Positions 872 through 5,360 of a stretch of DNA of 5,360 nt are shown here, piece after piece. The translations under genes and the position numbers were made by a program. The DNA comes from a virus (taxonomy: Duplodnaviria > Heunggongvirae > Uroviricota > Caudoviricetes). How positions within the stretch are numbered: the first letter of the stretch is position 1; the number at the start of each line of letters is the position of its first letter. The stretch lies in IMG/VR virus record IMGVR_UViG_2667527777_000004. One strand, written 5' to 3'. Below the pieces are notes generated by a model. It saw nothing but the letters and a program-made list of their open reading frames with translations, ran no database searches and was not told where the DNA came from.

Positions 872-1551
872 ATAACCAGTATTTACAGTTTGTGCGTGAG
901 CAGCTCATTATCGCCACCGCTGATTTGAGTGGGGCAACAAAAGGTCAGCTTGAAGCCTGGCAAGAGAATGCCATGTTCGATACAGGGCGTTACAGGCGTA
1001 AAAAAATCCGGTACCGCGATGAAGTGACTGGAAAAATGATAACGCGGGATAATCCACCAATCCCGGGAAAGCAATCGCTGGCGAAGGGGACGTCAATTCC
1101 TCTGGTCAGTCCGGTTGAGTTTTCGACATCATCGTGGCGGCGGGCTGTTCTGTCTCTTGAAGAGCACTATAAAGCCTGGTTGTTGTGGTGTTACAGCGGG
1201 AGTATTTGTTGGGAATATCAGATCGCGATAACACAGTGGGCGTGGAATGAATTTAATGCTCAATCCGGTACCAGAAAAATTGCAGGGAAAACGCAGGAAC
1301 GCCTGAAAAAATTAATCTGGCTGGCGGCGCAGGCAGTAAAAGCAGAACTTTTTGGTGGGGAAGGTTATGAATACCAGGAGCTGGCATTACTGGCGGGAGT
1401 GACAACTAAAAACTGGTCCAAAACATTTACTCGTCACTGGGTTGCAATGAAACACATTTTTCACCGACTGGATAGTGAGGCTTTATTGTTTGTAATGAGA
1501 ACACGTTCAAAAAAAAGACGGCATTTTCAAAGCAAAGTGTTGCAAAAGTAG
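868..1551 (+). CDS. Putative late-gene antiterminator Q (start taken at ATG 868 rather than the track's GTG 862)
   Basis: 227-aa ORF directly after rusA and directly before a sigma70-like promoter plus intrinsic terminator, the canonical position of Q in lambdoid phages. ATG 868 overlaps the rusA stop (ATGA). Basic C-terminal tail (RTRSKKRRHFQSK). Family assignment is from synteny and not from recognised sequence identity. Confidence 0.55.
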   Translation: MNNQYLQFVREQLIIATADLSGATKGQLEAWQENAMFDTGRYRRKKIRYRDEVTGKMITRDNPPIPGKQSLAKGTSIPLVSPVEFSTSSWRRAVLSLEEHYKAWLLWCYSGSICWEYQIAITQWAWNEFNAQSGTRKIAGKTQERLKKLIWLAAQAVKAELFGGEGYEYQELALLAGVTTKNWSKTFTRHWVAMKHIFHRLDSEALLFVMRTRSKKRRHFQSKVLQK

Positions 1552-1568
1552 ATTAAAAGGCATATATT
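1540..1568 (+). promoter_or_regulatory. pR'-like late promoter (TTGCAA -17 bp- TATATT)
   Basis: -35 TTGCAA at 1540-1545 and -10 TATATT at 1563-1568 with a 17-bp spacer, overlapping the 3' end of the putative Q gene. A -10-like GATACT at 1580-1585 lies in the initial transcribed region where Q-dependent sigma70 pause elements sit. Confidence 0.5.
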
Positions 1569-1620
1569 CATGCAAATCTGATACTTTGCCGATTTTGTAC
1601 GTGATGGCAAAAGCAAACAA

Positions 1621-1645
1621 AACCCGCCCACAAGCGGGTTTTTTG
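1621..1645 (+). terminator. Intrinsic terminator, tR'-like
   Basis: Stem ACCCGC (1622-1627) pairs with GCGGGT (1634-1639) around loop CCACAA, followed by a T6 run (1639-1644). It lies about 50-70 nt downstream of the pR'-like -10. Confidence 0.7.
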
Positions 1646-1711
1646 TGCCACTTATCTCGGATAGACATGGTGAATGCGCTGGTGGAGGAGATAAGGGTGA
1701 TTTTTGAATGC

Positions 1712-1740
1712 TTGCAACATTGATTTCGTAACGTTATTAT
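1712..1740 (+). promoter_or_regulatory. sigma70-like promoter upstream of the tRNA array (TTGCAA -17 bp- TATTAT)
   Basis: -35 TTGCAA at 1712-1717 and -10 TATTAT at 1735-1740 with a 17-bp spacer, ending 10 bp before the first tRNA. Confidence 0.45.
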
Positions 1741-1749
1741 CCTGCGCCC

Positions 1750-1825
1750 GGCCCTTTAGCTCAGTGGTGAGAGCGAGCGACTCATAATCGCCAGGTCGCT
1801 GGTTCAAATCCAGCAAGGGCCACCA
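1750..1825 (+). tRNA. ileZ: tRNA-Ile2-like, anticodon CAU (lysidine type, AUA decoding)
   Basis: Acceptor stem GGCCCTT pairs with AAGGGCC; D-arm GCTCAGTGGTGAGAGC; anticodon loop CTCATAA with CAT at 1783-1785; T-loop GGTTCAAATCC; encoded CCA. Sequence closely resembles E. coli ileX-type tRNA as recalled; Met(CAU) cannot be excluded from sequence alone. Confidence 0.8.
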
Positions 1826-1826
1826 A

Positions 1827-1903
1827 CCGCCACTAGCTCATCAGGAAAGAGCGTCAACCCTTTAAGTTGAGTGTGCGAGGTTCGAGTCCCCGGTGGCGGT
1901 CCA
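1827..1903 (+). tRNA. tRNA-like gene with atypical anticodon loop; canonical positions read UUU (Lys)
   Basis: 7-bp acceptor stem CCGCCAC/GTGGCGG, D-stem GCTC/GAGC, anticodon stem TCAAC/GTTGA with loop CCTTTAA (C at position 33 instead of U), T-loop TTCGAGT, encoded CCA. T-stem carries one A-C mismatch. Isotype is uncertain; Arg(CCU) with a shifted loop is an alternative. Confidence 0.5.
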
Positions 1904-1905
1904 GT

Positions 1906-1981
<76 letters not shown>

Positions 1982-1984
1982 TAT

Positions 1985-2059
<75 letters not shown>

Positions 2060-2132
2060 GTCAGAGTCTTTCAGTCTGCGATGATGGGAAATCCCGGAGT
2101 GACTGAAAGACGTTTAAGTTATGAATGATCGC

Positions 2133-2558
2133 TTTTTTTTGCAAAATTGCTGTGCAGAAATACTAACCTTCGGGCAGGCGATCATTCATAAGCACTCTGC
2201 TTTTATTCCGATTAACTGTGAGTGGTTTGTTGGATAGAGTGCTTTCCTTACTGTATATATCGTTTCGCCCGCTTTTGCGGTTTTTTCTTTTCAAATCCCT
2301 TTCATTTCTCAGTGTAAAACTACGCCATCCGTTATTTGCGNNNNNNNNNNCTTTTTTTGCAAAATTGCTGTGCAGAAATACTAACCTTCGGGCGTGCGAT
2401 CATTCATAAGCACTCTGCTTTTATTCCGATTAACTGTGGGTGGTTTGTTGGATAGAGTGCTTTCCTTACTGTATATATCGTTTCGCCCGCTTTTGCGTTT
2501 TTTTCTTTTCAAATCCCTTTCATTTCTCAGTGTAAAACTACGCCATCCGTTATTTGCG
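2133..2558 (+). repeat. Tandem direct repeat, two ~208-bp copies (2133-2340 and 2351-2558) separated by 10 N
   Basis: Copy 2 matches copy 1 at a constant offset of 218 bp with three differences seen by eye (gggcaggcg vs gggcgtgcg; ctgtgagtgg vs ctgtgggtgg; one extra T in a T-run). Copy 2 ends at the holin Shine-Dalgarno sequence. Each copy contains a short hairpin plus T-run (CCGC TTTT GCGG TTTTTT). Confidence 0.7.
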
Positions 2559-2569
2559 GAGGTGAGGCT

Positions 2570-2785
2570 ATGAAATCCATGGACAAAATTTCAACGGGCA
2601 TTGCCTACGGCACCTCCGCAGGCAGTGCTGGCTACTGGTTTTTACAGTGGCTTGATCAGGTCAGTCCGTCACAGTGGGCTGCGATTGGTGTACTGGGGAG
2701 TCTGGTTCTGGGCTTCCTGACTTATCTGACAAATCTGTACTTCAAAATCAGAGAAGACAAGCGTAAGGCTGCGAGAGGTGAATAA
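2570..2785 (+). CDS. Class II holin, phage-21 S21 pinholin type, with dual-start motif
   Basis: 71-aa product [30 protein letters not shown]...[19 protein letters not shown]; the two Met codons at positions 1 and 4 (MKSM) give the antiholin/holin pair typical of S21; two hydrophobic segments and a basic C-terminus. Strong SD GGAGGTGAGG upstream. Confidence 0.85.
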
Positions 2786-2805
2786 TGTCGCCATCATTAC
2801 GGTAA
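2785..2805 (+). pseudogene. Possible remnant of an R21-type endolysin start (MSPSLR-stop)
   Basis: ATG overlapping the holin stop (TAATG) encodes MSPSLR then TAA. This resembles the recalled N-terminus of phage-21-type SAR endolysins (MPPSLRK...) but ends after 6 codons. Relies on memory of the R21 N-terminus. Confidence 0.25.
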
Positions 2806-2868
2806 GCGCCCCATCAGCGACGTCTTGTGAAAATTGTCCTGTCTGGCAACAATCGCGCNNNNNNNNNN

Positions 2869-2995
2869 GGTCAGTCCATCACAGTGGGCTGCGATTGGTG
2901 TGCTGGGAAGTCTGCTTCTGGGGCTTCTGACTTATCTGACGAATCTGTATTTCAAAATAAGAGAAGACAAGCGTAAGGCTGCACGGGGAGAGTAA
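2869..2995 (+). other. Second, diverged copy of the holin 3' end (last ~41 codons plus stop); 5' part lies in or beyond the N gap
   Basis: Aligns with 2659-2785 at an offset of 210 bp with ~10 substitutions, nearly all synonymous. Encodes [41 protein letters not shown] versus ...SLVLGFL... in copy 1. Stop TAA at 2993-2995. Confidence 0.7.
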
Positions 2996-2998
2996 ATA

Positions 2999-3628
2999 AT
3001 GAAGCATGAAGAAATGAATCAGCGATTCAATCACCTGGAAAATGAAATCACTGAGCTTAATAAAAAATTGTCGGCGTTGGTGAGTTCTGAAGATGAAAAC
3101 AAACGCCGCGATGAGCATTATGCGGCGATTTACGATTACTGCCACAAAGTCGCTCACGAGACTTTTATGAAGTTTTTGCAGGAAAAGTTTTTACCGGCCG
3201 CATTGTCAGAAAAAGAGGCGGCTTACCTGCGGCCTGAGTACGTCATTACGGTTAACAGTGCCGGAGAGGAAGAGCATAAAAGTGATTTTATTGCGTCTGC
3301 ACCGGATAAAGACCAGGAACCCCATCGGCCTTTCAGGGTTTCCTGTGAAGAGGGTGAGTTCGTCGTTTATGAGAACGGAAAACCTGTCCGGGCATCGCAT
3401 CATCACTGCCTGAAAATTATTAATCTCGCTATCAGATGCCTGAAAGACGAAAACACCAGAGTTATGAAACGCATTGGCCGTTGCATGGGGTATTTGCAGG
3501 TGGCGGCAGAGATTGAAGCACTTGCCAGTGGTGCAGACATGGATGCTGCGGTGCGGGAGGCTCTTCTTCGTGATTTCAATACTCCCCCTTTAAGAAAGAG
3601 CCTGATGACTGGATCCAGCCGGGGCTGA
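2999..3628 (+). CDS. Hypothetical 209-aa soluble protein between holin and endolysin; no family recognised
   Basis: Long ORF with SD-like GGGGAGAG 7-14 nt upstream of the ATG, starting 3 nt after the holin-fragment stop. N-terminal ~40 residues are charged and heptad-like (EEMNQRFNHLENEITELNKKLSAL); central and C-terminal part has Cys/His clusters (YDYCHKVAH, RVSCEEGE, SHHHCLKIINLAIRCL, GRCMGY). No transmembrane segment or signal peptide is evident. Confidence 0.6.
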   Translation: MKHEEMNQRFNHLENEITELNKKLSALVSSEDENKRRDEHYAAIYDYCHKVAHETFMKFLQEKFLPAALSEKEAAYLRPEYVITVNSAGEEEHKSDFIASAPDKDQEPHRPFRVSCEEGEFVVYENGKPVRASHHHCLKIINLAIRCLKDENTRVMKRIGRCMGYLQVAAEIEALASGADMDAAVREALLRDFNTPPLRKSLMTGSSRG

Positions 3629-3693
3629 CTTATCTTAAAAGGCGTATATAAGTTGGCTCGTTATTTGTTGCCGATAAATCCTGATAAATATCC

Positions 3694-4227
3694 ATGAGCG
3701 CAAAAATCAAATACGGCCTGTCGGCTGCTGTTCTGGCGCTGATTGCCGCAGGCGCGTCTGCTCCCCAGATACTTGACCAGTTTCTGAACGAAAAAGAGGG
3801 TAATCACACAACGGCATACCGTGATGGTTCTGGCATATGGACCATCTGTCGTGGTGCCACAATGGTGGATGGTAAGCCTGTCATACCGGGAATGAAGCTG
3901 TCGAAGGAAAAATGTGACCAGGTTAACGCTATTGAACGTGATAAGGCGCTGGCATGGGTGGAGCGCAATATTAAAGTACCTCTGACCGAACCCCAGAAAG
4001 CGGGTATAGCGTCATTTTGCCCCTATAACATTGGCCCCGGTAAGTGTTTCCCGTCGACGTTTTATAAGCGGCTGAATGCCGGTGATCGTAAGGGCGCATG
4101 CGAGGCGATTCGCTGGTGGATAAAAGATGGTGGGCGCGATTGCCGCATACGTTCAAATAACTGCTATGGACAGGTTATTCGTCGTGACCAGGAAAGCGCA
4201 TTAGCCTGTTGGGGGATAGATCAATGA
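3694..4227 (+). CDS. SAR endolysin (GH24 T4-lysozyme-like muramidase with N-terminal signal-anchor-release domain)
   Basis: N-terminal Gly/Ala-rich weakly hydrophobic segment ([21 protein letters not shown]) followed by the catalytic E-x8-D-x5-T triad ([16 protein letters not shown]). Stop overlaps the Rz start (ATGA). Confidence 0.85.
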
Positions 4228-4691
4228 GCAGAGTCACCGCGATTATCTCCGCTCTGGTTATCTGCATCATCGTCTGCCTGTCATGGGCTGTTAATCATTA
4301 CCGTGATAACGCCATTACCTACAAAGAGCAGCGCGACAAAAACGCAAGAGAACTGAAGCTGGCGAACGCAACCATTACTGACATGCAGCAGCGCCAGCGT
4401 GATGCTGATGCACTCGATGCTAAATACACGAAGGAGTTAGCTGATGCGAAAGCTGAAAATGATGCTCTTCGGCGCAAGCTTGATAATGGTGGTCGGGTGC
4501 TCGTCAAAGGAAAATGCCCTGTGCCATCCTCAGCCGAAACCTCCAGCGCCTCCGGCATGGGCAATGATGCCACCGTCGAACTCTCTCCAGTTGCTGGACG
4601 AAACGTTCTCGGTATCCGGGACGGAATCATCAGCGACCAGACAGCATTGAGAATGCTTCAGGAGTACATCAGGACTCAGTGCCTGAAATAA
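4224..4691 (+). CDS. Rz: Rz i-spanin (inner-membrane spanin subunit)
   Basis: [34 protein letters not shown]...[19 protein letters not shown] closely matches lambda Rz as recalled: N-terminal TM helix, coiled-coil periplasmic domain. The track ORF starts 15 nt upstream at 4209; ATG 4224 is preferred from homology and the ATGA overlap with the endolysin stop. Confidence 0.9.
4444..4650 (+). CDS. Rz1: Rz1 o-spanin (outer-membrane lipoprotein), embedded in the +1 frame of Rz
   Basis: [21 protein letters not shown]: signal peptide with lipobox VVGC (Cys19), followed by a proline-rich mature region ([16 protein letters not shown]), matching lambda Rz1 architecture and its nested position. Confidence 0.85.
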
Positions 4692-4724
4692 ATTTTTTTG
4701 CAAATCACAAAGTCCATTTAATGA

Positions 4725-4748
4725 GCCTCGCACTTGCGGGGCTTTTAT
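4725..4748 (+). terminator. Intrinsic terminator downstream of the lysis cassette
   Basis: Stem GCCTCGC (4725-4731) pairs with GCGGGGC (4736-4742), one G-U pair, loop ACTT, followed by TTTTAT (4743-4748). Confidence 0.65.
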
Positions 4749-4893
4749 ATGTCCGCAGTAAACCGCGCATCGCAGCGCGTAACAATCCCGAGTCTTTCAG
4801 AAAGCTGAGCCTGAGAACTGCCGTATAGGTGAGGACCTCTCGGGGACGGCTTTTCTGTGCGAACAGGCTCAACTTTCTAAAGGAGATACCGAC

Positions 4894-5070
4894 ATGAACA
4901 AATCATTAACCGTTCTTCCTTCTGGCGAATACCCGACCATGAGCAGTCTTGAGATGGTGGATTACATTAATGCTGATCGGAAATCCAAAGCGGAGGCGGA
5001 GGGGCTTGCGTTCCCCTGTAAGAAATATCGCAAACTCGAACACCGCAGTTTCATGAAGAAAGTGAGGTAG
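4894..5070 (+). CDS. Short ORF (58 aa) resembling the N-terminus of Rha/antirepressor-family phage regulatory proteins; possibly truncated
   Basis: SD AGGAG at 4881-4885, 8 nt before the ATG. Product MNKSLTVLPSGEYPTMSSLEMVDYINADRKSKAEAEGLAFPCKKYRKLEHRSFMKKVR. Stop TAG at 5068-5070, ~50 bp before a 184-N gap. The family resemblance is from memory of Rha-like N-termini. Not in the supplied track because it is under 60 aa. Confidence 0.4.
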   Translation: MNKSLTVLPSGEYPTMSSLEMVDYINADRKSKAEAEGLAFPCKKYRKLEHRSFMKKVR

Positions 5071-5120
5071 CCTGAGTTTAACGGACACTCCTTCCTGAAA
5101 TAGAATGGCATCAGAAGGAG

Positions 5121-5304
5121 NNNNNNNNNNNNNNNNNNNNNNNNNNNNNNNNNNNNNNNNNNNNNNNNNNNNNNNNNNNNNNNNNNNNNNNNNNNNNNNN
5201 NNNNNNNNNNNNNNNNNNNNNNNNNNNNNNNNNNNNNNNNNNNNNNNNNNNNNNNNNNNNNNNNNNNNNNNNNNNNNNNNNNNNNNNNNNNNNNNNNNNN
5301 NNNN
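5121..5304. other. Assembly gap (184 N); shorter 10-N gaps at 2341-2350 and 2859-2868
   Basis: Runs of n in the sequence. Both 10-N gaps sit exactly at boundaries of duplicated segments. Confidence 0.95.
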
Positions 5305-5360
5305 GAACCGCCCCGGGTTTCCTGGAGAGTGTTTTATCTGTGAACTCAGGCTGCCAGATC

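Follow-up and report, generated by a model that had tools for sequence, protein, structure and literature searches.

The window, by which we mean the whole 5,360-nt stretch of DNA that was analyzed, contains the late region of a lambdoid prophage and is divided by three runs of N into four contigs, all of which, like the genes and elements described below, are given on the plus strand. The first contig (c1, 1-2340) holds the left half of a prophage locus termed here locus A. A 10-N spacer (2341-2350) follows, and then a 508-bp sequence (c2, 2351-2858) that forms a separate contig between both 10-N runs. The second 10-N spacer (2859-2868) leads into c3 (2869-5120), which covers a different locus, locus B, from the 3' end of its holin gene onwards. 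After a 184-N scaffold gap (5121-5304), the window closes with c4 (5305-5360), the end of an IS1203/IS629-type element of the IS3 family, which matches annotated IS1203 family transposase features at 100% identity and is found at up to 50 places per genome. The second spacer is the position at which the original prediction placed a mosaic junction in the lysis cassette; it consists of exactly 10 N, and no sequenced base crosses it.

Genes on c1 identified with Pfam are the C-terminus of a DUF968 protein (14-505), RusA (506-871), and a Q antiterminator of family PF06323 (868-1551), followed by four tRNA genes (1750-2059). Over all 2340 nt, c1 was 99.8% identical to both CP178302.1 and CP182555.1, where it runs directly into a holin gene (the A allele) and a disrupted endolysin gene, rrrD'::IS66. 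In CP178302.1 c1 continues straight into the right part of c2, and the matches to c1 and c2 overlap by 207 nt. The order in complete S. flexneri genomes, DUF968-RusA-Q-tRNAs-holin-rrrD'::IS66, matches c1 together with the right part of c2. The A-allele holin on c2 is complete (2570-2785, 71 aa) and belongs to class II, the phage 21 S type (PF04971; E=1.4e-35, 121.5 bits against a cut-off of 26). Its N-terminus, MKSMDK, contains a dual-start motif formed by Met1 and Met4, as read from the sequence, and membership in this family suggests that the protein may act as a pinholin. The haplotype of this allele was identical in 10 of 10 S. flexneri-type A loci and in E. coli NZ_CP065613.1 (L002).

The holin A gene is followed by a stub (2785-2805; ATG TCG CCA TCA TTA CGG TAA) encoding MSPSLR-stop, in which 17 nt are left of rrrD, the gene for a DLP12/phage 21-type endolysin. 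The K-12 RrrD protein starts with MPPSLRKAV. The stub is exactly that of rrrD in NZ_CP065613.1 through position 2801 and diverges after it, with the TAA stop supplied by the end of an insertion sequence. That sequence is the left terminal 57 nt of a multicopy IS66-family element (2802-2858), inside which c2 ends. It matched 2,209 places in 1,345 E. coli records, with up to 17 places per genome, and in two hits examined (NZ_CP063046.1 and NZ_CP083869.1) the stretch from 2799/2802 to 2858 lies 25-85 nt upstream of tnpA in a tnpA-tnpB-tnpC set. An exact-pattern scan of species-representative genomes recovered the exact rrrD'::IS junction, followed by IS66 genes, in CP178302.1 and in S. flexneri CP182556.1. 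At the A loci of S. flexneri, the junction is followed by ORFs of 224 aa and 115 aa (PF05717) and by a DDE_Tnp_IS66 ORF. Among complete E. coli genomes, none covered at least 80% of 2770-2858, the junction taken as one piece. Read in this way from the sequence, the stub is an rrrD gene that an IS66-family element has interrupted after codon 6, so that the cassette is dead. Since c2 ends in the left end of such an element, the real sequence after holin A would be an IS of about 2.6 kb. The right end of the element lies outside the window; where complete genomes show the IS66 copy at this site, an IS3-family element has inserted into it.

The first base of c3, directly after the 10-N run, lies within a second holin gene that is cut at the start of the contig and has no 5' part. 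What is present is the 3' 127 nt of the B allele (2869-2995), corresponding to codons 31-71 and the stop. Between this holin and a lysozyme gene lies ORF209 (2999-3628, 209 aa), whose sole match was phrog_1085, a family of unknown function, with none in Pfam, NCBIfam or PDB sequence searches. The lysozyme (3694-4227, 177 aa; PF00959, E=1e-24) is RrrQ-like, sharing 166 of 178 aligned residues with K-12 RrrQ and 58 of 176 with RrrD. It is followed by an Rz spanin (4224-4691, 155 aa; PF03245, E=2e-30) with an embedded Rz1 lipoprotein ORF (4444-4650; PF06085, E=4e-21). The end of an IS600-like IS3-family element (5063-5120) terminates c3 and cuts a 58-aa ORF at 4894-5070. This end is 100% identical to IS ends adjoining transposase ORFs of 100 aa and 272 aa in S. 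flexneri loci, and it matched 6,252 places across the E. coli genomes, with a maximum of 43 in a single genome.

The exact ORF209 protein is encoded in many complete S. flexneri genomes, including those of 2457T (AE014073.1) and M90T (CM001474.1), and always in the context DnaC/DnaB-NinH-Q(PF06530)-full 71-aa holin-ORF209-lysozyme-Rz. Locus B in complete S. flexneri genomes, with the order NinH-Q-tRNAs-holin-ORF209-lysozyme-Rz, matches c3, at 99.8% identity from holin nt 90 onwards. The gene that occupies the slot between holin and lysozyme varies, being ydfR in K-12 and some phages and a DUF1327 gene or a 221-aa ORF in other prophages. No deposited phage covered at least 80% of c3, the nearest being lambdoid phages in which the slot holds a gene of the ydfR type or a hypothetical one.

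The near-identity of the two holin 3' ends at 2659-2785 and 2869-2995, from which the original prediction set out, was confirmed as a 127-nt direct repeat of 88% identity with copies 210 nt apart. The count of about 10 differences was too low, as there are 15, although the predicted bias toward third codon positions held, with 12 differences at position 3 and 3 at position 1. The coding effect is limited to the two predicted amino acid changes, V to L and F to L, with one further synonymous change of AGA to CGG. Divergence between the copies is overwhelmingly synonymous (Nei-Gojobori dN 0.022, dS 0.585), and in complete genomes the two copies have their counterparts at different prophage loci, in agreement with the proposal that these are two alleles from different phages rather than a recent duplication. 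The MSPSLR-stop stub after the first copy and the 209-aa ORF after the second were also correctly identified. The second copy is the 3' end of the full-length 71-aa holins of B loci: it was identical to that of E. coli FDAARGOS_944 (L001) at 127 of 127 positions and to that of an S. flexneri B locus (L013) at 126 of 127, compared with 112 of 127 for the A allele. A crossover at 2665-2668, marked by an A-like T in c3 at 2875, was considered and rejected, as the B-type allele of FDAARGOS_944 also has T.

The flanks of the second spacer map to different prophage loci in complete genomes. In E. coli NZ_CP065613.1, c1 (99.7%) and c2 (99.1%) match one prophage at 0.65 Mb, with the order DUF968-RusA-Q-tRNAs-holin-rrrD-Rz, and c3 (98.8%) matches another at 5.02 Mb, with the order tRNAs-holin-hypothetical-lysozyme-lysis protein. 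Loci A and B of complete S. flexneri genomes are separated by 1.2-1.35 Mb and have opposite orientations, as in CP182555.1 (locus B at 0.70 Mb, forward; locus A at 1.95 Mb, reverse) and LR213455.1 (locus B at 3.26 Mb, reverse; locus A at 1.91 Mb, forward). The two are about 95% identical from the tRNA cluster into the holin. Within this region a stretch of 121 nt (2499-2619), comprising the holin ribosome-binding site and the first 50 nt of the gene, is identical in both loci, and a second exact repeat of 207 nt lies just upstream, at about 1926-2132 in window coordinates.

A survey of 5,426 complete E. coli genomes was carried out with window positions 1500-4700, c2 alone, and a synthetic join of c1, core and c3 as queries. 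The layout with tandem holin ends was found in none of these genomes, nor in the other complete genomes examined, and an A-type Q gene joined to ORF209 was likewise absent from all 5,426. Six E. coli genomes covered at least 80% of 1500-4700, but did so with a stretch of 2,532 bp against a query span of 2,959 bp, which means that the repeated sequence is present once in those genomes.

The first 10-N run is flanked in the same manner as the second. Positions 2134-2340 and 2352-2558 are near-duplicates of 207 nt with 4 differences (98% identity), so that both spacers sit between homologous, overlapping sequences (98% over 207 nt and 88% over 127 nt). On its left c2 overlaps the end of c1 by 207 nt and on its right the start of c3 by 127 nt with 15 differences, and the true relation of the flanks of the first spacer is an overlap, not a gap. 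This second near-duplicate, along with the 57 nt of IS66-family sequence and the separate 508-bp contig, had been missed in the original prediction.

Haplotypes were compared across ten A and ten B loci from complete S. flexneri-type genomes. Upstream of the holin, the left part of c2 (2351-2498) has the haplotype of locus B, with C, G, T, G and T at 2351, 2394, 2395, 2439 and 2498. The A loci carry TAGAG at these sites in 9 of 10 cases, as does c1, and CAGAG in the remaining one (L026), followed by holin A and then rrrD'::IS66. All ten B loci carry CGTGT, followed by holin B and then ORF209. The contig c2 has CGTGT followed by holin A and rrrD'::IS66, a mixed haplotype, whereas 0 of the 10 A loci and 0 of the 10 B loci were recombinant. 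Over 2351-2619 it agreed at every position with the B loci L007 and L013, and from 2499 onwards it agreed likewise with locus A; within 2499-2619 it matched both loci of CP182555.1 (L017, locus A, and L007, locus B) without mismatch. Because it joins the CGTGT upstream haplotype to holin A, c2 is a chimera of loci A and B. The switch between haplotypes is contiguous within c2, which is B-type to 2498 and A-type from 2620, and is not at 2859-2868. Most probably c2 is a misjoin and not a real recombinant.

The contig edges follow a pattern as well. The 3' ends of c1, c2 and c3 all lie 57-60 nt inside repeated or shared sequence, with c1 ending 60 nt beyond its last A-specific base (2280), c2 57-60 nt into IS66, and c3 58-59 nt into the IS3-family end. 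The left edge of c3 contains no IS sequence; it falls within the holin gene, and c3 first differs from c2 after a further 9 nt. This edge is 39 nt downstream of the first holin site that discriminates A from B and of the start predicted by a simple graph model, and nt 51-89 of the B-type holin are missing from the window, a point that counts against the scaffolding explanation given below. The possibility that the N runs represent later masking of real bases was rejected, as both coincide exactly with the points where overlapping homologous sequences end or begin, and the resulting duplications are absent from finished genomes.

We consider it very probable, from these sequence comparisons, that the junction was created during the scaffolding of a draft genome, when the holins of two separate prophages were placed in series with 10-N spacers between contigs. 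On this view the proposed mosaic junction does not exist on any DNA molecule. The original prediction had offered two readings of it. A real recombination joint was not supported, since only Ns are present at the joint, an IS66-family end follows holin A, holin B starts at the gap edge, and the tandem arrangement needed for such a joint was seen in none of the complete genomes examined. The other reading, in which lysis regions of two prophages were collapsed across the 10-N gap, was borne out by the mapping of the flanks to different loci, with the refinements that c2 is itself an A/B chimera and that the stub reflects an IS66-family insertion in rrrD rather than a joint between phages.

The sequence most likely comes from a draft genome assembled from short reads, that of Shigella flexneri or a very close relative, and the organism would carry two lambdoid prophage remnants with paralogous late regions, a DLP12-like locus A and a Qin-like locus B. 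The assembler may have broken or mis-threaded at the exact A/B repeats and at IS copies to yield three pieces, c1, c2 and c3. Of these, c1 would represent the upstream part of A, ending 60 nt into the 121-nt repeat, and c2 would combine the upstream branch of B, the common repeat, and the 3' end of holin A with rrrD'::IS66. Read pairs, probably as mate-pair links, would then tie c1 to c2 through locus A and c2 to c3 through locus B, and c2 would be placed between the other two because it has sequence of both loci. A scaffolder that ordered c1-c2-c3 and met negative gaps without a clean overlap would insert minimal 10-N spacers, 10 N being a placeholder convention of such programs. Spacers set between overlapping contigs would account at once for both apparent duplications, the 207 nt at the first spacer and the 127 nt at the second. 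Contig 3' ends located 57-60 nt into repeats are in keeping with a de Bruijn assembler, presumably run with k of about 61. An assembler normally crosses a 121-nt repeat only with read or pair support, and the fact that c2 spans the whole common stretch leaves room for a real recombinant in the source strain, with B upstream and A downstream.

Such a recombinant could have arisen through reciprocal recombination between the inversely oriented prophages within the 121-nt stretch, which would have inverted about 1.2-1.35 Mb of the chromosome. In that case c2 would be the correct contig of one hybrid prophage (B upstream, holin A and rrrD'::IS66) and the other hybrid would consist of c1, the common stretch and c3 (A upstream, holin B and ORF209), making the adjacency of c1 and c3 genuine and leaving as artifact only the placement of c2 between them; even then, the holin ends would not be in tandem. 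The joining of a B-type upstream haplotype to an A-type holin in c2 and the connection of an A-type c1 with a B-type c3 in the scaffold are both consistent with this, as is the opposite orientation of loci A and B in complete S. flexneri genomes, by which a crossover inverts the intervening segment rather than deleting it. An A-type left arm followed by an ORF209-like 221-aa gene and lysozyme also occurs naturally elsewhere (L023), and in E. coli O157:H7 there are documented inversions that arose by recombination between homologous prophages (Iguchi et al. 2006, as cited in PMC6379469). However, the k-mer content is identical in both arrangements, and a misjoin across a 121-nt exact repeat yields the same contigs. 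Nucleotides 51-89 of the B-type holin, which the second hybrid needs, are those absent from the window, and neither the recombinant loci in the S. flexneri-type genomes nor the A-type Q with ORF209 in the E. coli survey turned up. We therefore regard an inversion as unlikely. If it were true, the hybrids would pair an A-type Q with an intact Qin-like lysis cassette and a B-type Q with the IS-killed cassette, and would represent one more case of a type of rearrangement already documented.

A joint on a single molecule, running from holin A and rrrD'::IS66 to a 5'-truncated holin B and ORF209, would require an IS66-mediated rearrangement or adjacent deletion with the body of the IS in the gap. 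An IS66-family end does follow the first holin, and IS-mediated rearrangements abound in Shigella, with ends of IS66, IS600-like and IS1203 elements all present in the window. Yet c3 begins in holin sequence homologous to c2 and not in an IS right end, whereas IS sequence does make up the last 57-59 nt of c2 and of c3. Beyond the IS66 element at the A site, complete genomes have unrelated genes, in which the sole match to c3 is a 58-nt IS end, and in CP182556.1 neither ORF209 nor holin B was found in roughly 7 kb beyond the rrrD'::IS66 junction. ORF209 is always preceded by a full-length holin, and overlap across 10 N is also seen at the first gap in the absence of any IS, all of which makes a joint of this kind very improbable. 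We give almost no credence to the idea that a single prophage recently duplicated the 3' end of its holin gene in tandem. The presence of two copies of the 127 nt at a distance of 210 nt would be expected from it, but 15 differences (dS=0.59) are far too many for a recent event, each copy is 99-100% identical to a different locus in other genomes, and Ns and an IS end separate the two.

The biology underlying the window is ordinary and visible in finished genomes, which have two paralogous lambdoid lysis cassettes per chromosome, one of them disabled by an IS66-family element, and between holin and lysozyme a slot whose gene varies. The case calls for caution with draft genomes rich in IS elements and prophages, such as those of Shigella and EHEC, where N spacers can mimic mosaic joints as well as duplications, and where a small contig that bridges two others can be a chimera.

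Among known systems, locus A is closest to the cassette of phage 21 and DLP12 (S21 pinholin-R21 SAR endolysin-Rz/Rz1; essD-rrrD-rzpD/rzoD in K-12). It shares with them a 71-aa PF04971 holin, an MKSM motif as a putative dual start, and a holin stop overlapping the rrrD-type start (ATAATG), and its upstream order of DUF968-RusA-Q is that of the RrrD-bearing prophage in NZ_CP065613.1. Unlike in DLP12, an IS66-family element has left just the first 17 nt of rrrD at locus A, and the holin is identical to K-12 essD at only 175 of 216 nt. Locus B has the gene order of the Qin cryptic prophage of E. coli K-12 (essQ-ydfR-rrrQ-rzpQ/rzoQ), namely holin, one inserted gene, lysozyme, and Rz with embedded Rz1. 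It differs from Qin in having ORF209 (phrog_1085) rather than ydfR in the slot and an Rz that belongs to PF03245, where the annotation of K-12 RzpQ gives DUF2514, and its holin is identical to essQ at 166-167 of 216 nt. The present case resembles the large inversions between prophages in O157:H7 in that two lambdoid prophages are inversely oriented and share homologous late regions, here of about 95% identity with exact repeats of 121-207 nt, although the recombinant arrangement was found in none of the complete genomes examined. In comparison with collapsed or mis-scaffolded paralogous repeats in short-read drafts of bacteria with many prophages and IS elements, such as Shigella and EHEC, there is no difference in kind: fixed-length N spacers, overlapping flanks, contig ends at a constant depth of about 57-60 nt in repeats and a bridging chimeric contig are all present, and the window represents a textbook instance.

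The contig preceding the holin junction, c2, shares sequence with the contig on its left as well as with c3 on its right. A near-duplicate of 207 nt with four differences lies on either side of the 10-N run at 2341-2350 (2134-2340 versus 2352-2558), showing that c2 overlaps both c1 and c3. The c1 copy carries the haplotype of the DLP12-like prophage (locus A), and the c2 copy carries that of the Qin-like prophage (locus B). Upstream, a cluster of four tRNAs (1750-2059) has the anticodons CAT, Lys-TTT, Thr-TGT, and Gly-TCC, the first of which belongs to a tRNA annotated as tRNA-Ile in RefSeq relatives. The paralogous B-type prophage has tRNA-Arg at the position of tRNA-Lys, and the two prophages share the Thr/Gly part of the cluster as a 207-nt exact repeat (about 1926-2132).

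At the right end of c2, rrrD is cut after 17 nt by an IS66-family insertion sequence, whose left end (2802-2858) supplies the stop codon of the remaining MSPSLR stub. An identical rrrD/IS66-family junction is present in complete Shigella flexneri-type genomes; a search across 5,426 complete Escherichia coli RefSeq genomes did not find it as one piece. In complete S. flexneri (locus L006, CP182556.1, about 5130-7125, minus strand), the IS66-family insertion in rrrD has its own tnpC split by an IS3-family element. Beyond it lie genes for a Mu/P2-like tail sheath and tube, so locus A appears to have lost the rest of its lysis cassette through deletion.

Insertion sequence ends also mark the right edge of the window. 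An IS3-family (IS600-like) terminus at the end of c3 (5063-5120) cuts a 58-aa ORF at 4894-5070, and c4 (5305-5360) is an IS1203/IS629-type terminus. In the S. flexneri B locus L013, an insertion sequence occupies the same site as the c3-end terminus in the opposite orientation. The 184-N gap between c3 and c4 presumably hides further IS sequence.

Between the holin and lysozyme genes, ORF209 (2999-3628) fills a variable slot that in related prophages and phages holds ydfR, a DUF1327 gene, or a 221-aa ORF. It matches phrog_1085, a family of unknown function, and had no match in Pfam, NCBIfam, or PDB. It is common in S. flexneri; at a nucleotide identity of at least 99%, a search across 5,426 complete E. 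coli genomes found it in only six.

Codon 32 of the holin (window 2875) encodes Ser in c3 and Arg, with G at this site, in all 10 complete S. flexneri B loci. Site 2875 was considered as a crossover mark and rejected, as the E. coli B-type allele also encodes Ser; the Ser/Arg variation is a strain-level difference. Modules do get exchanged at or near the holin in nature, as evident from a natural prophage (L023, ADKD01000013.1, 2936-7735) that combines an A-type left arm (DUF968-RusA-229-aa Q) with a holin, a 221-aa ORF, and a 177-aa lysozyme. That exchange differs in form from the arrangement in the window.
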